A stretch of 64,000 nt of DNA, taken from Escherichia phage sutha. Each line of letters begins with the position of its first letter. Positions within the stretch are counted from its first letter, which is position 1. The stretch is taken from sequence record PV245934.1; one strand, 5' to 3'. This document shows, one piece after another, positions 2,375-43,671 of the stretch. A program made the position numbers and the translations under genes. The notes beneath the pieces were generated by a model. That model saw only the letters and a program-made list of their open reading frames with translations, searched no databases and was not told where the DNA came from.

Positions 2375-2590
2375 TTAAATTTTCCAGTTACCGTTTTCAT
2401 CAATAAATTTAATCCAGTCATTTACTGACCACTTGGTCGTATCGCCTTTTGGAGCAACATTTAAAGTGTATAATCCTTGTTTAAAAAGCATGCGTTTGAT
2501 ATTCATATTTTCCTCAGCTATAACGATAACACTCGTTTGATTTGCGCTTAGCAACTCGTTGAGAAGTATTGTAATCAAAATCATCGTCAA
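2375..2590 (-). CDS. hypothetical protein
   Basis: 71-aa ORF. Confidence 0.4.
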   Translation of the reverse strand: MTMILITILLNELLSANQTSVIVIAEENMNIKRMLFKQGLYTLNVAPKGDTTKWSVNDWIKFIDENGNWKI

Positions 2591-2853
2591 TGTAAACTGA
2601 TTTTTTTCAACTTTCTTACTTCACTACGTAATTGACGATTTAGCTCATCTTTAACTTCTGAATCAATGCCTTTCATTCTACGCCATTTATCAGAGCGAAA
2701 AATGTTTTCAACCATATCTTTATGACTTACACCATCAGGAGCTTTACGCTTTCCGAAATAGTCATAATCACGTACTTTTAAATCTTTACGACGATACGTT
2801 TTACCCATGGAGTTTAATTTCCTTAGCAACTGAACTAAATACAGCACGATCAC
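2587..2853 (-). CDS. hypothetical protein
   Basis: 88-aa ORF, basic. Confidence 0.4.
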   Translation of the reverse strand: MIVLYLVQLLRKLNSMGKTYRRKDLKVRDYDYFGKRKAPDGVSHKDMVENIFRSDKWRRMKGIDSEVKDELNRQLRSEVRKLKKISLH

Positions 2854-4080: not shown

Positions 4081-4551
4081 TTAATCATGTTTCCACACCC
4101 CATCGGTATTTGACCAAAGTCGCTGATTATCTGATCCTCGCCACAGCTTTTTGGTCGGAAGATTTTTCTCATACTTCCCATCAATAATAACATCAACATA
4201 TTTAAGCATTTCTAGTTGTTTAATATCTTCAAACTTATATCCTGTCCACAACCAAATGCTTTTATTGGGATAAAGATTTTTTACTGTTTGAACAATGCAA
4301 TGAATAACATCTCGGTTATCAGGATAGAGAGGGTCTCCTCCAGTTATAGTTAATCCTTCTATATAATCATTATTCAAACATTCAATTAATTGTTCTAGTG
4401 TTTCACCAGTGAATGGAACGCCATTTCTAGCATTCCATGTTGATTTATTATAACACCCTTCACATTTATGCAAACAACCTGTAACGAAAAGAACGACCCT
4501 GCATCCAGGACCATTAACAAAGCAGCAAGGGTATATTCTGTCATAATTCAT
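4081..4551 (-). CDS. nrdG: anaerobic ribonucleotide reductase activating protein (radical SAM)
   Basis: Radical-SAM Cys cluster CCFVNGPGCRVVLFVTGCLHKCEGC; immediately downstream of nrdD; start taken at MNYDRIYP. Confidence 0.9.
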   Translation of the reverse strand: MNYDRIYPCCFVNGPGCRVVLFVTGCLHKCEGCYNKSTWNARNGVPFTGETLEQLIECLNNDYIEGLTITGGDPLYPDNRDVIHCIVQTVKNLYPNKSIWLWTGYKFEDIKQLEMLKYVDVIIDGKYEKNLPTKKLWRGSDNQRLWSNTDGVWKHD

Positions 4552-5282
4552 AATAATATCCAATTTTTCCAAGCTTCATCAGTAGAATTACAGCGTTTTA
4601 GTATAAGATGTCTAGAAACTTTTATGGCATTTGAGCACTTTTTAATTGAATCATATTTAATACCGTCAACTGAAACGGTTTTGCTAGTTGGAGAAATTTT
4701 TCCATACATTGGATTTTTTGAACCAACTTGAAGTCCTTTTAAAGCTTTTGAAAGCTTTTGTCTAGATTCCAATGACATGGGAGAATTCTTTTTACCTTCA
4801 ATAATTCGCTTGCGATGAAGTTCGCGTTCTTCTTCACTCAAAGAATTGTAATATTTTTTAACACCGTTTGATATAGATAATTTATCTTTCTCAGACCGCT
4901 CTCCAGCTAATTTACTTCTAACATCTTTTCGCTTCATAGCTATGCTTACGGCTTTATTTAAATTTGCTTGATGCTCTGGCGTACGTTTATATTTCTTTAA
5001 AGCACGTGAAATAGCTATTTTAGTTTCTTCTGTTCTCTTTTTACCTTTATTTGCTAAACTATTTTTGCGGCGATGTTCAAGTGTCTGTTCATAGGCAGTT
5101 CCACCTTTTCCACCAGGTTTAATATTATATGTATTTTCTTTTAGACAATACTCTTCGGTTACAAGTTCAGCTTCTTTATCATACATTTGTTTTTCATTAT
5201 CAAAAACATGTAAAATTTCTTTATTAAAATTTTTTCTACCATGTTTTAATAAAGCGGCACGAATCAATGTTCCTGACCCCAT
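4548..5282 (-). CDS. GIY-YIG family homing endonuclease, C-terminal portion (NUMOD-like DNA-binding repeats)
   Basis: Repeated basic helix motifs (RKNSLANKGKK.., SRQKLSKALKG..) typical of Seg-type DNA-binding domains; N-terminus begins mid catalytic domain (GSGTLIRAALLKHGRKNF). Confidence 0.7.
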   Translation of the reverse strand: MGSGTLIRAALLKHGRKNFNKEILHVFDNEKQMYDKEAELVTEEYCLKENTYNIKPGGKGGTAYEQTLEHRRKNSLANKGKKRTEETKIAISRALKKYKRTPEHQANLNKAVSIAMKRKDVRSKLAGERSEKDKLSISNGVKKYYNSLSEEERELHRKRIIEGKKNSPMSLESRQKLSKALKGLQVGSKNPMYGKISPTSKTVSVDGIKYDSIKKCSNAIKVSRHLILKRCNSTDEAWKNWILL

Positions 5283-5292
5283 ATAACCGTCA

Positions 5293-5382
5293 TTTATTTA
5301 TGTTATCGGTGCTATGCGCACCGATATATTCCTTTGAATTAATTATATTTGTTATTTTATAAATTATATAATACCTATGCAT
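5293..5382 (-). pseudogene. N-terminal GIY-YIG motif fragment in a different frame (frameshifted or split homing endonuclease gene)
   Basis: Manual translation from ATG at 5382: MHRYYIIYKITNIINSKEYIGAHSTDNINK*, carrying the GIY...YIG signature; ends at TGA in an A-rich run; the 244-aa ORF continues one frame over. Confidence 0.55.
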
Positions 5383-7192
5383 GTTTTACTCGTTTTACCA
5401 TTTCTTTCATTTTACCTAAATTCCATGGAACAACGCTAGGAGTTCCAAGATATCCGCATGTTCTTCTTATTGTATTCATCTTTTTAGGATCAGTTTCTCC
5501 ACAAATAGAACAAACAAATCCGTTTTCAGTAGGAGTCATTTCATGGGTACTTCCACACGTAAAACATTTATCTACTGGCATATTAACACCAAAATAATCT
5601 AAATGTTGTGCAGCATAATCCCATACAGCCTCAAGACCTTTTAGGTTATTTTTCATATCAGGAAGTTCAACATAAGAAATGTGACCACCTGTCGCAATGA
5701 AATGATACGGTGCTTCGCGAGAAATCTTTTCAAACGGAGTAATATTTTCTTCTACTGAAACGTGGAAACTATTAGTGTACCAGCCTTTATCGGTAACATC
5801 TTTTACACTTCCATATTTTTCGGTATCAAGTTTACAGAAGCGATAACACAGGTTTTCAGCAGGAGTAGAATACAAGCTAAAAGCAAATCCGGTTCTTTCA
5901 GTCCACTGTTTAAGACGAGCATTCATTTTAGTCAAAATTTCTTGCCCAATATCACGACCGACAAGAATATTCAATTCGTGAATACCGATGTATCCCAGGG
6001 ATACTGAACTTCTACCGTTTTTAAATAACTCAATTATATCATCATCGGGTTTAAGACGAACCCCGAATGCACCTTCTTGGTAAAGAATAGGAGCAACAGT
6101 AGCTTTAACTCCTTTTAATGAACTAATTCTACACATCAATGCTTCAAAACATAAATCCATTCGCTCATTGAACAATTCGGCAAATTTCTGTTCATTGAAT
6201 TGTGTTCCAATATAAGAATCTAACGCAATGCGAGGAAGATTCAGTGTTACAACGCCAAGATTATTACGTCCATCAAGAATTTCATTACCAGTCGAATCTT
6301 TCCATACGCTCAAGAAACTACGGCAACCCATTGGAGAAACAGGAATAGATGAACCTGTGATAGCTTTATTGTTCTTAGCCGAAATGATGTCAGGATACAT
6401 TCTTTTGCTTGCGCATTCTAAAGCAAGCTGCTTAATATCATAGTTCGGATCGTCTTTATAAAGATTAACACCTTCTTCAACAAACATAACAAGTTTAGGG
6501 AAAATAGGAGTTATCCCATCACGACCAAGGCCTTTAATACGATTTTTCAGAATTGCTTTCTGAATCATTCGTTCAGTCCAGTCAGTTCCCGTACCAAATG
6601 TAATTGTTACAAAAGGCGTTTGTCCGTTTGAACTAAAGAGAGTATTTACTTCATATTCATAAGCTTGGAATGCATCGTATACATCTTTTTCTGTTTTAGA
6701 TTGGGCATAATTCAACGCATCAGCGATTTGCCATTTTTCTGCGTCCTCAATATGTTTTGCATAGGTGCGTTTAACATAAGGAGAAAGGACTTTATCTACA
6801 TTCGCAAAAGTCGTTCCACCGTATTGATGGGAAGCAACCTGTGCAGTAATTTGTGCCATAATTGCAGTAGCAACACCGATTGATTTAGGAGTTTCAATCT
6901 GTGCATTACCGAGCTTAAATCCGTTCTCAAGCATTCCTTTTAAATCTACTAAACAGCAATTAGTAAATGGAAGAGCAGGGGAATAATCAATATCATGGAA
7001 ATGAATAATTCCGCTTTCATGCGCTTTCATAATAAAAGACGGGACCATATTTTTGGCAATGTGTTTAGACACAATACCAGCCATAAGGTCCCGTTGAGTT
7101 GGAAAAACACGAGAATCTTTATTAGCATTCTCGTTTAAAAGGTCTTTATTAGTTTTATGAATCAATCCTTCAATTTCTTTTTCAATTGTCAT
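5375..7192 (-). CDS. nrdD: anaerobic ribonucleoside-triphosphate reductase
   Basis: 605 aa; C-terminal glycyl radical motif RRTCGYLG; N-terminus MTIEKEIEGLIHK as in T4 NrdD; continuous, no intron. Confidence 0.95.
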   Translation of the reverse strand: MTIEKEIEGLIHKTNKDLLNENANKDSRVFPTQRDLMAGIVSKHIAKNMVPSFIMKAHESGIIHFHDIDYSPALPFTNCCLVDLKGMLENGFKLGNAQIETPKSIGVATAIMAQITAQVASHQYGGTTFANVDKVLSPYVKRTYAKHIEDAEKWQIADALNYAQSKTEKDVYDAFQAYEYEVNTLFSSNGQTPFVTITFGTGTDWTERMIQKAILKNRIKGLGRDGITPIFPKLVMFVEEGVNLYKDDPNYDIKQLALECASKRMYPDIISAKNNKAITGSSIPVSPMGCRSFLSVWKDSTGNEILDGRNNLGVVTLNLPRIALDSYIGTQFNEQKFAELFNERMDLCFEALMCRISSLKGVKATVAPILYQEGAFGVRLKPDDDIIELFKNGRSSVSLGYIGIHELNILVGRDIGQEILTKMNARLKQWTERTGFAFSLYSTPAENLCYRFCKLDTEKYGSVKDVTDKGWYTNSFHVSVEENITPFEKISREAPYHFIATGGHISYVELPDMKNNLKGLEAVWDYAAQHLDYFGVNMPVDKCFTCGSTHEMTPTENGFVCSICGETDPKKMNTIRRTCGYLGTPSVVPWNLGKMKEMVKRVKHA

Positions 7193-7710: not shown

Positions 7711-8175
7711 TTAAAATGCTCGTTCAGAAAAAGAAATTTGAGTTTCAAGCCATTCAATATATTCTGCTGCAGCTTGCATCAAATTTCCTTCATAGCCATC
7801 GTTATTTTCTTGTGCAGCTAATTTAGCTAATGCATATGAAATACGTTCACCCTGAAAAGCGGCTTTAGGTTTATGAATAGCTTGATCAACTCGTTCTACA
7901 ACTTCTTCAATTTCGCCATTTTCTACTGATTCAGTATTCCACAAGCACCAATACGTAATTGGCTTATCATAGATGTTAATAATCTTTCCATCAGAAAGTT
8001 CAATTTCAATAATTCCAGTATCAGGTTCTATATCATCTTCACATTCTTTTGCAAGTTCACGAACTTTAAAGACAGTACCTGCACTAAGTTCCGGCCAGTA
8101 ATTACACAGCCCTTTATCAGCACGATTAATTCTAAACCACTTATCTACTGTAATCATGTCCCATCTCCATATCAA
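7711..8175 (-). CDS. hypothetical protein (occupies the position pin has in T4; not verified)
   Basis: 154-aa acidic protein between gene 49 and the nrdC cluster. Confidence 0.45.
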   Translation of the reverse strand: MIWRWDMITVDKWFRINRADKGLCNYWPELSAGTVFKVRELAKECEDDIEPDTGIIEIELSDGKIINIYDKPITYWCLWNTESVENGEIEEVVERVDQAIHKPKAAFQGERISYALAKLAAQENNDGYEGNLMQAAAEYIEWLETQISFSERAF

Positions 8176-9261: not shown

Positions 9262-9504
9262 TTATTCCTTAATTCCTAGTACTTGTTTAAAAGTCTCGTC
9301 GTAATCAAGACTTTGACCTGTTTGTTCTTTATGTTTGTATATAATATCACTTACTTCTGATAGCATATTTTTATATGAACGAGTTAAAGCAGATTTAAGT
9401 ACGCTGTATCTATCAGGAAATTTACCGTGTTCATTATAATACGCTATTGCTAATTCACGGACTGCCTTTTCAGCAATCTCCATATATTCTTTACGCTTTG
9501 TCAT
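9262..9504 (-). CDS. hypothetical protein
   Basis: 80-aa ORF. Confidence 0.4.
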
Positions 9505-9809
9505 TTTTTTTCTCGGTTAAATCGGTGTTTGCAATGACGGCATTTATAACGAAGATTACTAGTCTGCCAATGAACTAATTGAACCTGTTCAGTACCGCAT
9601 TCAGGACAATTAGGAACGTTTTTAGAAGCCCTTTCGCGGCGTTCAACCATAGCCATAATGGCATCCCAAGCAGGAGGTTTAAAGTCTAGATCGTCACAAC
9701 CATGAATCTTTCCACGCATTTCTAAATCGTCTTCTTCACCAGCCATAATAATTTTAATTAGACTGGAATTACTTGAAGCTGCAATATCTTCTAATAGACG
9801 CTTTTTCAT
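9501..9809 (-). CDS. zinc-ribbon protein
   Basis: CPECG...CRHCKH paired CxxC motifs. Confidence 0.45.
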
Positions 9810-32978: not shown

Positions 32979-33533
32979 TTACCGGTAGCGACCCGGTTTC
33001 TCATTTGGTATTTCAAATTGTGTAGATTTAGTATCTAATTTTTTAACTATGGAACTTATGTCATGAAAGAAAAACCATTCACTATTTATATGGTCCTGAT
33101 TATAAATGCTGTGCATATATTTTTCAAGTTCTACTGCATCCTGGGAATATCTAAATGATACTATTTTAAAACTTTTAAACGGTGAAAATGTATTTGCTGT
33201 TATAACTCTAACATCAGGTTCTATACTTCTTCCTATTTTATAATAATTAGGATTTGTAGTATCTACCATTATGTATACGAAAGCCTGTCGATAGCTTTTT
33301 TCTATATCAAATTCATCTTTAAATTTCAAAAGATTTAGGGCGGCAGTCCTACAAAATACTTTCCATTTTGACAAGCGTTTGGCTTTAGTCATAGAAAAGA
33401 ATTTTTTCTTATCTGTTATTTTAAGAAAAGCAACATTTTCAATTAGTTCTTGTGTTATTTCAAAATTACCATGGTATATTAATCCAGCTTTTATAGCCAA
33501 ATTAATTTGGTCCCAGTCTACATCACTTCTCAT
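32979..33533 (-). CDS. hypothetical protein inside the tRNA region (weak GIY-YIG/T5orf172-like motif)
   Basis: 184 aa; NYYKIGRS motif mid-protein; between tRNA-like RNA and tRNA-Arg. Confidence 0.45.
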   Translation of the reverse strand: MRSDVDWDQINLAIKAGLIYHGNFEITQELIENVAFLKITDKKKFFSMTKAKRLSKWKVFCRTAALNLLKFKDEFDIEKSYRQAFVYIMVDTTNPNYYKIGRSIEPDVRVITANTFSPFKSFKIVSFRYSQDAVELEKYMHSIYNQDHINSEWFFFHDISSIVKKLDTKSTQFEIPNEKPGRYR

Positions 33534-39877: not shown

Positions 39878-41633
39878 TAACCTCAATTGGTTTGTTGGTG
39901 TTGTTGAAGATAGAATGGACCCATTAAAATTAGGTCGTGTTCGTGTTCGTGTAGTTGGTCTGCATCCACCTCAAAGAGCGCAAGGCGACGTAATGGGTAT
40001 TCCAACCGATAAATTACCATGGATGTCAGTTATTCAACCTATAACTTCTGCAGCAATGTCTGGAATTGGAGGCTCCGTTACTGGTCCGGTAGAAGGAACT
40101 AGAGTTTATGGTCATTTTTTAGACAAATGGAAAACTAACGGAATTGTCCTTGGCACATATGGCGGAATAGTTCGCGAAAAGCCTAATAGGCTTGAAGGAT
40201 TTTCTGACCCAACTGGACAGTATCCTAGACGTCTAGGAAATGATACTAACGTATTAAACCAAGGCGGAGAAGTAGGATATGATTCGTCTTCTAATATTAT
40301 CCAAGATAGCAATCTAGACACTGCGATAAATCCCGATGATAGACCACTATCAGAAATTCCAACTGATGATAATCCAAATATGTCAATGGCTGAAATGCTT
40401 CGCCGTGATGAAGGATTAAGACTAAAAGTTTATTGGGATACTGAAGGATATCCGACAATTGGTATTGGTCATCTTATCATGAAGCAGCCAGTTCGTGATA
40501 TGACTCAAATTAATAAAGTTTTATCAAAACAAGTTGGTCGTGAAATTACCGGAAATCCAGGTTCTATTACAATGGAAGAGGCGACAGCTTTATTTGAACG
40601 CGATTTGGCTGATATGCAACGTGACATTAAATCACATTCTAAAGTTGGCCCAGTTTGGCAGGCAGTTAATCGTTCTCGTCAAATGGCATTAGAAAACATG
40701 GCATTTCAGATGGGTGTTGGTGGTGTAGCTAAATTTAACACATTGTTAACTGCTATGTTAGCAGGAGATTGGGAAAAAGCATATAAAGCTGGTCGTGATT
40801 CATTGTGGTATCAACAAACAAAAGGACGTGCATCCCGTGTTACTATGATTATTCTTACGGGAAATTTGGAATCATATGGTGTTGAAGTGAAAACCCCAGC
40901 TAGGTCTCTATCAGCAATGGCGGCTACTGTAGCTAAATCTTCTGACCCTGCTGACCCTCCTATTCCAAATGACTCGAGAATTTTATTCAAAGAACCAGTT
41001 TCTTCATATAAAGGCGAATATCCTTATGTGCATACAATGGAAACTGAAAGCGGACATATTCAGGAATTTGATGATACCCCTGGGCAAGAACGATACAGAT
41101 TAGTTCATCCGACAGGAACTTATGAAGAAGTATCACCATCAGGAAGAAGAACAAGAAAAACTGTCGATAATTTGTATGATATAACAAATGCTGATGGTAA
41201 TTTTTTGGTAGCCGGCGATAAAAAGACTAACGTCGGTGGATCAGAAATTTATTACAACATGGATAATCGTCTCCACCAAATAGATGGAAGCAATACAATA
41301 TTTGTGCGTGGCGATGAAACGAAAACTGTTGAAGGTAATGGAACTATCCTAGTTAAAGGTAATGTTAAAGTAGTTATTCAAGGAACAGCAGATATAACTG
41401 TTGAACAGGAAGCATACATAACTGTTGAAAAAGACACGACTGTTAATGTTAACCAAAACGCAGACATAAGTGTTAAAAATAAAGCAACTGTTAATGCTGA
41501 AAATATGGATGTCAACGTTGAGCAAGATTTAAATTTTTCAGCGACAAATATTAATTTAAGTGCATCTAATACTGTTCATATGGATGGCGGGGTTCTTTCT
41601 AAAGTATCAGGTGGAAACGTACAGGTTGGTTAA
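39861..41633 (+). CDS. 5: baseplate hub / tail lysozyme gp5 (variant C-terminal beta-helix region)
   Basis: N-terminal MEMISNNLNWFVGVVED..., internal lysozyme domain MAEMLRRDEGLRLKVYWDTEGYPTIGIGHL; 590 aa versus 575 recalled for T4, with a different last ~100 aa. Confidence 0.9.
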   Translation: MEMISNNLNWFVGVVEDRMDPLKLGRVRVRVVGLHPPQRAQGDVMGIPTDKLPWMSVIQPITSAAMSGIGGSVTGPVEGTRVYGHFLDKWKTNGIVLGTYGGIVREKPNRLEGFSDPTGQYPRRLGNDTNVLNQGGEVGYDSSSNIIQDSNLDTAINPDDRPLSEIPTDDNPNMSMAEMLRRDEGLRLKVYWDTEGYPTIGIGHLIMKQPVRDMTQINKVLSKQVGREITGNPGSITMEEATALFERDLADMQRDIKSHSKVGPVWQAVNRSRQMALENMAFQMGVGGVAKFNTLLTAMLAGDWEKAYKAGRDSLWYQQTKGRASRVTMIILTGNLESYGVEVKTPARSLSAMAATVAKSSDPADPPIPNDSRILFKEPVSSYKGEYPYVHTMETESGHIQEFDDTPGQERYRLVHPTGTYEEVSPSGRRTRKTVDNLYDITNADGNFLVAGDKKTNVGGSEIYYNMDNRLHQIDGSNTIFVRGDETKTVEGNGTILVKGNVKVVIQGTADITVEQEAYITVEKDTTVNVNQNADISVKNKATVNAENMDVNVEQDLNFSATNINLSASNTVHMDGGVLSKVSGGNVQVG

Positions 41634-41634
41634 T

Positions 41635-43671
41635 ATGAATTATAACGAAATTGTTGATGAATTAGTTGATACCATACAATCAGCTTGTTCAATTATTCCC
41701 GAAGGTTATTATAGACGAGTTAAATGGGAATTATACAATCCCAATAAAGAAATGATTCAACCCGATAATGGGGTTGAATGGGACACTGAAATTATTAAAT
41801 TAGATACCCATCTTTACACCGAAAATCCATTTGGTCATTCTTCTGATACATTTACTGAATCATCTGATGGAGAAACCCAAACTGGTGTTTTTTGTCATAA
41901 AATCGGCGTGTATTTTCCAACTCAAACTGCGTTAGAAGATTACGTTGAACAAATTGGTGCAACTTTACTTCCAGGTAATACTTGGTATGGTGCTGATTTA
42001 TCGAAACGTGAATTTTTTAAAACTGAAATTGAATATGATATGTATCGCATTGAAAATCGCGGAGGTACATGGCATCATACGGGTCCTAGAATAGATGCTA
42101 GGACAATGATCGGTGTTAACAATGACTATACAATGTATGTTAACTTTAACGGTTTAGGAGATTATCGAAGAGCATATTTAAAATATTATGAAGATAAACC
42201 ATGCACATATGTCGGTTTAACACTAAATTTAAATATAGATACATCAATTCCCGGTATTCCTTATTCACCTCCATCAATTATTGGAGAGCTTCCACTTAAT
42301 GCAATTTCATGCGTTAATTTTACTGCCCAATTTCCATACAATGGCTTAACAACTGCAATTATTGAGGCTTGGAACACCTCAAGAGATTCATTTAAACTAT
42401 ATTGGGATATGTTGCCTGGTATGCCGGCAATTAGCGGAAGTGATTTTGAAAAATATTTTAATTCGGCATATACACATTTATCTGTAGCAATGGAAGAGCT
42501 TGGAAATTCGGCAATTGCCATGTGTCAATATGTTCAGCAACAAGCCTTTATGGTTTTTAAAAATTCTGTTTCACAAGTTCTAAATATTGTCGGTGGCGGA
42601 TGGGATTTATTAAAAAGTTTTTTACCTAAAATAACAATAATGGGCATATCTATTGATATTGAAGATTTATGTACATCAACAGATGGTGTTCAAAAATTGA
42701 AGGAAACCTTTGAAAATTTTAATCTGGAAGATACTATTAGTTCAATTTATTCTGCAATGGGTTCTGCATATGACTATTCTATAGAACGCGTTAAAATGTA
42801 TTCGCGGGATTTAGTTGATGCAATAACAGATTTATATGATTGGGCCTGGTCAAAATTAATGATGGCCGGTGTCGCTTTATCAAAATTATGTGTTGATTTA
42901 GCACAAATCTGGAGCATGCCACCAATTATTCCAAATCCAGTGTGGTCTGTTATCACTTTAGTGAAGGAAATGATGAAACAAATTCCTCCATTAGATATGA
43001 TTATGTCAGGTAATTTTCCTGGATTTACTGCTTCTGATGTATATCAGATGGTTATGTCTATCGTATCTGAAAAAATTAAACAAGTTTATAATGAAATAGA
43101 ATCATTAAAAACCCAAGCATTGGATGTATGGAATGAAATTAAACTAAAAACACAGGAATATAAAAAGCAAACGATTGAATTTAAACAATATTTATCAGGA
43201 ATGGCTGAAAAGGTTGAAGATGAAATAACTATAGCAAAAAAGAAAGCGTTACAAGAAGCTGAATCCGCTTTAAATGTTTTAAAGGATAAATATAACAGTA
43301 TTAAAGACTTGATAAAAAATAAACAGATTTCTGTGTCTGATGTATTAGATTTAGCTTTGACTGAATTTCGAAAAATTCCATTAATTTCACAAATGGAATC
43401 ATTATTATCTTTAGCTGGAGCATCTATCGATGATATAATGAAAGTATATGAAAATAGCGTTACTAAAGCAAAATCATTATATCACGAATTCACCGATGGC
43501 GCTCGGTCAATGAAAGATCTATGCAAATCATTATACAATCAAATTTCGACTTTATGTTTGAGTAAGGTTGTGCAATGGATTAATAAAATGCTTGGAATAT
43601 TTGGATTAAGTATTACATTTCCAACAGTATCAATATGCATTCCATGCTTAAAAACTCCTATGAGGAATTAA
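41635..43671 (+). CDS. large protein of unknown function between gp5 and gp6
   Basis: 678 aa from ATG one nt after the gp5 stop (MNYNEIVDELVD...), ends 1 nt before gp6; central coiled coil, hydrophobic C-terminal segments; no motif I recognise. Confidence 0.7.
   Translation: MNYNEIVDELVDTIQSACSIIPEGYYRRVKWELYNPNKEMIQPDNGVEWDTEIIKLDTHLYTENPFGHSSDTFTESSDGETQTGVFCHKIGVYFPTQTALEDYVEQIGATLLPGNTWYGADLSKREFFKTEIEYDMYRIENRGGTWHHTGPRIDARTMIGVNNDYTMYVNFNGLGDYRRAYLKYYEDKPCTYVGLTLNLNIDTSIPGIPYSPPSIIGELPLNAISCVNFTAQFPYNGLTTAIIEAWNTSRDSFKLYWDMLPGMPAISGSDFEKYFNSAYTHLSVAMEELGNSAIAMCQYVQQQAFMVFKNSVSQVLNIVGGGWDLLKSFLPKITIMGISIDIEDLCTSTDGVQKLKETFENFNLEDTISSIYSAMGSAYDYSIERVKMYSRDLVDAITDLYDWAWSKLMMAGVALSKLCVDLAQIWSMPPIIPNPVWSVITLVKEMMKQIPPLDMIMSGNFPGFTASDVYQMVMSIVSEKIKQVYNEIESLKTQALDVWNEIKLKTQEYKKQTIEFKQYLSGMAEKVEDEITIAKKKALQEAESALNVLKDKYNSIKDLIKNKQISVSDVLDLALTEFRKIPLISQMESLLSLAGASIDDIMKVYENSVTKAKSLYHEFTDGARSMKDLCKSLYNQISTLCLSKVVQWINKMLGIFGLSITFPTVSICIPCLKTPMRN

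Follow-up and report, generated by a model that had tools for sequence, protein, structure and literature searches.

The window, i.e., the whole stretch of 64,000 nucleotides of Escherichia phage sutha (PV245934.1) that was analysed, carries on its minus strand the two genes of the anaerobic ribonucleotide reductase system and between them a free-standing GIY-YIG homing endonuclease gene that is out of frame. Upstream lies nrdD, coding for the reductase large subunit, which is uninterrupted (5375-7192, 605 aa) and whose 3' end reads AAA CAT GCA TAG; downstream lies nrdG, coding for the reductase activase (4081-4551). The segH locus in between (4548-5382) comprises 835 nt in the window, as compared to 831 nt in intact alleles. 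Its ATG (5382-5380) overlaps the stop codon of nrdD (ATGCATAG). At the other end, the last stop codon of the locus (TGA, 4550-4548) overlaps the nrdG start (ATGA; nrdG ATG at 4551-4549), a 4-nt overlap that is likewise present in the annotation of KIT06, and the translation of nrdG may be coupled to that of segH.

The split of this gene into two frames, described in the earlier note, is borne out by the sequence and the list of ORFs, which place an ORF of 30 codons at 5382-5290 and an ORF of 244 codons at 5282-4548 on the minus strand. The short ORF, which indeed begins with the ATG overlapping the nrdD stop, encodes MHRYYIIYKITNIINSKEYIGAHSTDNINK and comprises beta-1 and beta-2 of the nuclease domain together with the GIY (YIIYKI) and YIG (EYIGAH) motifs. 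It ends at a premature TGA of the original frame (5292-5290, context AAU AAA UGA C) that falls within ATAAATAAATGA, and it holds 30 sense codons instead of the 29 counted before. The +1 frame is open already from 5297, and its first ATG, at 5282, stands 7 nt past the premature TGA, corresponds to Met33 of SegH and sits within the conserved DGYMGSG motif. The resulting 3' ORF (4548-5282, 244 aa) contains the remainder of the GIY-YIG domain (helix alpha-1 onward, with E69 and N85), a helical linker, a NUMOD3 motif (4692-4778, residues 201-229 of the repaired protein) and a C-terminal module resembling the I-TevI DNA-binding domain (4557-4700, residues 227-274).

Judged by its sequence, the locus is segH, an already named and characterised homing endonuclease gene of T4-like phages. 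When 50,697 phage records were searched with the region by megablast, 70 of them, all of Tequatrovirus, matched the query over its full length at 97-99% identity. Between nrdD and nrdG, the matching records, PP01 among them, have a gene annotated as segH/SegH or as "homing endonuclease", and the matches labelled segH/SegH include the original GenBank entries of RB3 (AY262138), T6 (AY262137) and LZ2 (AY262139). The order nrdD-segH-nrdG, the strand and the start/stop overlaps are the same in the annotations of RB3, T6 and KIT06. SegH was reportedly described by Sandegren, Nord and Sjoberg in 2005 (Nucleic Acids Res 33:6203), who are also said to have reported biochemical activity for it, and it is the GIY-YIG endonuclease that replaces mobC at the nrdD-nrdG junction in some T-even phages. 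The identity with segH was absent from the earlier note. The phage of the window itself belongs to Tequatrovirus and has no identical record, its best match being KIT06 (96.5% over 25 kb).

Once 4 nt are deleted, the locus encodes a repaired protein of 276 aa, which over residues 1-276 shares 99.6% identity with SegH of RB3, 99.3% with that of LZ2 and 97.5-97.8% with that of T6. The repaired allele differs from segH of SYGD1 by a single nucleotide, T136C (Y46H), the sole substitution of the window that none of five reference alleles shares, and this substitution affects a position at which both Y and H are common in the wider family according to the homolog alignment; with one substitution only, dN/dS is without information. 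With PHROG 314 (homing endonuclease), the repaired protein aligns in one stretch over residues 1-274 (E=5e-60), and the 30-aa fragment alone matches the adjoining positions 175-204 of the same profile (E=6.7e-7). On these profile matches, the two halves are parts of one gene, beyond chance. The NUMOD3 assignment of the repaired protein is well above threshold (PF07460, 33.9 bits versus a cut-off of 20.4, E=3e-8), and its matches to PF20987 (21 bits versus a cut-off of 27, E=3e-4) and PF19835 (SegE_GIY-YIG, 19 bits versus a cut-off of 25) stay below the respective cut-offs. Among the homologs on the precomputed list, the close relatives P0003 and P0004 carry PF20987, and many carry PF19835 or PF01541. 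The PHROG and Pfam matches and the homologs thus agree with the earlier view that a single Seg-type GIY-YIG/NUMOD gene lies between nrdD and nrdG and that joining the two frames gives a full-length enzyme.

The alignment with SYGD1, RB3 and T6 revealed the nature of the break. At this place, GATAAC-ATAAAT-GACGG (D N I N D G) of the intact alleles is replaced in the window by GATAAC-ATAAATAAAT-GACGG, with flanks identical to those of the three reference alleles. The unit ATAA has become ATAAATAA, so that 1.5 copies in intact alleles correspond to 2.5 copies at 5301-5292 of the window, a net gain of 4 nt that moves the reading frame by +1. The insertion lies between codons 29 and 30, and its deletion restores a continuous frame of 831 nt. 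The full-length megablast matches span 1197 nt of the 1201-nt query, the 4 nt by which they are shorter being accounted for by the duplication. The single frame of 276 codons that characterises SegH is interrupted in the window by TGA after codon 30, and the window therefore holds a disrupted allele of segH and no functional member of the family. The A-rich or homopolymeric run which had been proposed for the place of the split is not found there, since the longest run of A at the lesion is 3. Directly 5' of the duplication is a perfect 9-bp hairpin (5304-5326, TATCGGTGC-GCATA-GCACCGATA, codons 19-27), which is present in intact alleles too.

The position of the break was compared with the conservation and the fold of the family. 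Alignment of the fused protein to 34 and 60 diverse homologs (33-99% identity) revealed a gap-free and largely invariant segment, Y19-I-G21-x-H23-x-T25-x-x-x-x-D30-x-Y32-M-G-S-G36, of which the part crossing the junction, T25 to D30-x-Y32-M-G-S-G36, is invariant and without gaps. Hence, one uninterrupted frame represents the ancestral state, and the N-terminal motif is part of segH, as the earlier note had supposed, and of no other gene. Residues Y8, Y19-I-G21, E69/E71 and Y84-N85 of the repaired protein are invariant or nearly so in both sets of homologs, and the family-invariant Y8, Y19, G21, H23 and T25 are all located in the 5' fragment. In the family profile, Y8, Y19-I-G21, the Glu and the Asn of SegH align with Y6, Y17-V-G19, the E75 region and N90 of I-TevI. 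The order of motifs typical of the GIY-YIG superfamily (GIY, YIG, Glu, Asn) is seen on the repaired conceptual protein; in the allele of the window, these motifs are distributed over two polypeptides.

Intact SegH (P0001), as modelled by AlphaFold2, reaches pLDDT above 95 over residues 1-90 and displays the beta-beta-alpha-beta-alpha core of the GIY-YIG fold, with beta-1 at residues 4-12, beta-2 at 18-25, alpha-1 at 37-46 and beta-3 at 51-59; its DNA-binding region forms separate modules in the model. Among PDB structures, Foldseek ranks the I-TevI catalytic domain (1MK0, 1LN0) in the first three places, with a probability of 1.0 and a TM-score normalised to the target of 0.62-0.67. A single-sequence search of the PDB returned only noise; I-TevI was reached with the family profile, which matches 1MK0 by sequence (E=0.024), and with the fold search. 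In the model, the break falls past the beta-1/beta-2 hairpin and ahead of alpha-1, in a loop of fixed length across the 60 homologs. The GIY and YIG tyrosines thus reside on the 30-aa peptide, whereas the +1 frame codes for D30, Y32 and the GSG motif, for the Glu and Asn of the active site and for the DNA-binding modules. As neither product would have a complete active site, the allele is best described as a loss-of-function allele, i.e., a nascent pseudogene, in which the endonuclease activity has probably been lost.

The related phages, in which the nrdD-nrdG site was compared as had been advised earlier, provide no second example of the lesion. The tblastn search with the repaired protein returned 70 phage records at no less than 90% identity, each of which covers 80% or more of the query length, and among the matches listed (60 of 70) each is a single piece over residues 1-276 without frameshift. 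The duplication was found in 0 of the 71 phage records that hold the corresponding 91-nt stretch, with a best identity of 95.6% (87 of 91 bases). An exact 33-mer with the duplication had no match in IMG/VR, the JGI metagenomes or the one-per-species GTDB genomes, the duplication allele was not matched in complete E. coli genomes, and no record has the identical 244-aa product. The related loci in IMG/VR are only distant Seg-like genes of at most 53% identity. As far as the sequence records extend, the duplication is private to the phage of the window.

The earlier note had offered three causes for the split: a recent inactivating frameshift, a sequencing error at a homopolymer, or ribosomal slippage. 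The last of these is not supported, the 70 relatives all matching the whole gene. Leaky or programmed +1 frameshifting at AAU AAA UGA C, also referred to as compensatory frameshifting, would restore SegH with one extra Lys (…NINK-DGYMGSG…) and yield little enzyme. A +1 shift between 5297 and 5290 is the only one that joins the frames, and the stop of the 0 frame, UGA followed by C (5292-5289), is a weak termination context. Low-level compensatory frameshifting over indels is known, e.g., for herpesvirus TK (PMC5009743), and very little protein might suffice in the case of a homing endonuclease. However, the site is conserved in no relative, the frame being continuous in all those listed (60 of 70) and the duplication being absent from all 71 records, and therefore nothing appears to have evolved to use it. 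The 20 nt upstream (GCACCGAUAACAUAAAUAAA) have no GGAGG- or GGGGG-like Shine-Dalgarno stimulator, the re-pairing of Lys-tRNA from AAA to AAU would leave a wobble mismatch, and the product would be one residue longer in a loop that does not vary in length among 60 homologs. The nearby RNA is structured (z = -4.2 for a 131-nt region including the hairpin), but it is identical in intact alleles, and no Rfam match was obtained. The geometry bears a superficial similarity to the prfB (RF2) site CUU UGA C, namely a sense codon, UGA-C and a continuing +1 frame. When the window is compared with this site, the slow A-site codon of the 0 frame (UGA-C) is present, whereas conservation, the upstream Shine-Dalgarno stimulator and a P-site codon that re-pairs well are missing, and the window site was made by a private insertion. 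UGA-C at 5292-5289 arose incidentally from the ancestral AAT GAC. A programmed ribosomal frameshift was rejected for want of conservation, stimulators and an Rfam match, and so was transcriptional slippage, which needs a run of A/T of roughly 7-9 nt or more. Frameshifting as a source of some functional SegH is consequently considered very improbable.

Nearly as improbable is termination followed by reinitiation, by which the 244-aa SegH without residues 1-32 would be made, catalytically dead and with NUMOD3 and the C-terminal DNA-binding modules retained. When isolated, the DNA-binding domain of I-TevI is able to bind DNA, and I-TevI is in addition an autorepressor; in the SegH model, the DNA-binding region consists of separate modules. 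The truncated protein might serve as a site-specific DNA binder, e.g., as a shield of the SegH target or a transcription repressor, and its translation would keep nrdG translationally coupled, a role to which we assign an equally slight chance. Nothing interrupts the 3' ORF, whose stop codon overlaps the start of nrdG, and the AUG at 5282 lies within the reinitiation range of terminating ribosomes (PMC2988022), reinitiation for overlapping endonuclease genes being discussed in the same review of T4 mobile elements. Against this stand the lack of a recognisable Shine-Dalgarno sequence upstream of that AUG, the truncated nuclease domain without beta-1 and beta-2, which according to the model would probably misfold, and the private nature of the allele, which is too young for visible selection. 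Taken together, trace frameshifting and reinitiation at AUG 5282 are given a probability well under one in ten. A variant that joins the two, in which a real duplication acts as a dampening indel and rare +1 shifts at AAA_UGA_C and/or reinitiation yield trace SegH or a nuclease-dead DNA binder, is again very unlikely; if it were true, some homing or target protection would be kept and self-cleavage or toxicity escaped.

A serious rival to a real mutation is an artefact of sequencing or assembly, in which case the phage would carry an intact segH of 831 nt and the extra ATAA would have come from base-calling, polishing or consensus building in an AT-rich context of short repeats. The duplication is found nowhere else searched, every segH is intact among the matches listed (60 of 70 relatives), and the gene is without decay apart from the indel. 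A listing of every indel between the window and RB3 (over 50 kb) or KIT06 (over 35 kb) gave, besides segH, two uncompensated frameshifting differences within annotated genes, which appear in both comparisons and break otherwise conserved frames. One is an extra A in gene 55.5 (A6 to A7, window 2601-2607), which occurs in 0 of 437 related records; the other is a +1 change in the A8 run at the 3' end of nrdC.2 (GAGAAGAAAATG to GAGAAAAAAAATG, window 9504-9511), which occurs in 0 of 91 related records. These two runs are among only 7 homopolymers of at least 7 nt in the whole 64 kb. As such private +1 changes in A runs look like homopolymer sequencing errors, they lower the trust in the indels of this assembly.

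Several observations argue in the opposite direction. Sequencing errors usually concern homopolymers, unlike a 4-nt tandem duplication, and with an A run of only 3 nt a homopolymer error was rejected for segH; of the second cause proposed earlier, the homopolymer does not stand and an artefact of another kind remains as the rival. From gp5 to gp18, the large late genes are uninterrupted ORFs with the sizes expected of them, and each of the 10 tRNAs is intact as well; the assembly is therefore not riddled with indels. Where the RB3 comparison extends into the late genes, it shows no frameshift, and the late structural genes (about 28 kb) are frameshift-free despite 27 homopolymer runs of at least 6 nt. 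The resulting contrast, three private insertions that shift the frame within the first 10 kb versus none in 28 kb of late genes, is suggestive and not significant (Fisher p=0.5), and it does not discriminate between a mutation and an artefact. All three private indels are in dispensable genes, as expected of real mutations filtered by selection, although this point is weak. As the contrast between early and late genes is not significant, we set a real mutation no higher than about 0.6 and consider an artefact about half as probable.

The preferred explanation, with a probability of about 0.6, is thus a real and very recent loss-of-function slippage mutation of segH; among the three causes proposed earlier, a recent inactivating frameshift is best supported by an otherwise intact allele that differs by the indel and one substitution. 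Tandem duplication at a short repeat is the classic outcome of slipped-strand mispairing. In segH, slipped-strand mispairing during replication at the 1.5-copy ATAA repeat would have generated the duplication, and the adjoining 9-bp hairpin may have favoured the slippage. Ribosomes starting from the segH ATG would stop after 30 codons and leave a short GIY/YIG peptide. Without a product that has the whole active site, endonuclease activity would be lost, and translational coupling into nrdG might be reduced unless ribosomes reinitiate at the AUG at 5282. The rest of segH is untouched, with one substitution at a site that tolerates Y and H, and the event would therefore be very recent. A real disruption is uncommon a priori, since none of the 70 records is disrupted.

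Compared with SegH of T6, RB3 and LZ2, the allele of the window shares the locus, the orientation, the start/stop overlaps and, with the 4 nt removed, the 276-aa protein; it differs from them in the private 4-nt duplication after codon 29, which leaves ORFs of 30 aa and 244 aa, and in Y46H. With the intron-encoded I-TevI of T4 (1MK0, 1LN0), SegH has in common the catalytic fold, the motif order GIY, YIG, Glu, Asn and the modular arrangement of N-terminal nuclease, linker and C-terminal DNA-binding modules. The identity between the two is approximately 22-25%, and SegH differs from I-TevI in being free-standing, in having a longer helical linker with NUMOD3 and in being disrupted in the window. 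A closer parallel for the event is I-TevIII of T4, which is inactive through a large deletion and has a functional ortholog in RB3 (PMC2988022). In both cases, a homing endonuclease gene is inactivated in one phage while orthologs are intact in relatives, as expected for the decay phase of the life cycle of such genes (PMC2988022). In contrast to I-TevIII, segH of the window bears a 4-nt duplication and virtually no other sign of decay, a lesion that would correspond to the very first step and could be an artefact.

Both the gene and the class of event are already known, and the only new item is the private disrupted allele, which may not be real; the significance beyond annotation is small. 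The locus is appropriately annotated as segH, disrupted (pseudogene or frameshift), and neither as a "homing endonuclease" of 244 aa nor as a site of recoding. If the duplication is an artefact, it flags, along with the two private A-run insertions, indel errors in the assembly. If it is real, this would be the first disrupted segH among about 70 sequenced carriers and would capture the initial step in the decay of a homing endonuclease gene, and the phage would be a natural segH-null phage that may serve as a control for homing or marker-exclusion crosses.

The four-nucleotide duplication that splits segH is accompanied in the window by two other private changes, both in A-runs, which bear on whether a real mutation or an assembly artefact is seen at segH. 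The homolog of gene 55.5 (ORF 2587-2853, minus strand) carries a +1 insertion (2601-2607) that lengthens an A6 run, as read on the gene strand, to A7 and shifts the frame of the C-terminal third of the gene. None of 437 related phage records shared this insertion, which reflects either a genuine mutation or a sequencing error in the homopolymer. The altered A-run at the 3' end of nrdC.2 and the start of nrdC.1 (9504-9511) reads GAGAAAAAAAATG versus GAGAAGAAAATG in relatives, i.e., a G to A substitution plus one additional A that brings the run to 8 nt. This change, found in 0 of 91 full-length matches, would shorten nrdC.2 by 3 codons, and it also alters the spacer 5' of the nrdC.1 ATG.

In segH itself, a perfect 9-bp inverted repeat, TATCGGTGC-GCATA-GCACCGATA (5304-5326, within codons 19-27), lies directly upstream of the duplication and is conserved in intact segH alleles as well. 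On the minus strand, which is the gene strand, the duplication converts CATAAATG to CATAAATA (5295-5302). The T4 late-promoter consensus is TATAAATA, with which CATAAATA agrees at 7 of 8 positions; the exact consensus occurs at 15 sites elsewhere in the window, and the promoter-like sequence at the duplication is probably a coincidence. Public records of the intact gene are inconsistent in annotation, both in its start and in its name. Some genome annotations call segH from an internal ATG, giving 735 nt as against a true length of 831 nt, as in the RB3 genome record KM606994 (L022, 4717-5451) and the SYGD1 record (L001, 615-1349). The gene is named 'segD' in records of the RB3 group, whereas AY262138 names it segH.

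The neighbouring nrdD (5375-7192) is a single uninterrupted ORF of 605 codons without a group I intron or I-TevII insertion, in contrast to T4 nrdD, which has a group I intron/I-TevII insertion (table, PMC2988022). At the 3' end of the pin homolog (7711-8175) and in the gp49-pin spacer, 32 nt are missing relative to RB3, in gaps of 2, 22 and 8 nt. As pin is annotated as shorter in KIT06 too, the difference looks like natural allelic variation.

Two further regions of the window differ from RB3. Between gp5 and gp6, an ORF of 703 aa (41560-43671, plus strand) returned no match in a Pfam search; since RB3 holds only about 1 kb in this interval, with genes 5.1 and 5.4, the region is a replacement of about 2.2 kb relative to RB3. 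Adjoining the tRNA cluster, a 184-aa ORF (32979-33533, minus strand) matches T5orf172/MUG113 domains (E=1e-8 and 3e-6) and may represent another nuclease-like mobile gene, inserted in a tRNA region whose arrangement differs from both RB3 and KIT06.
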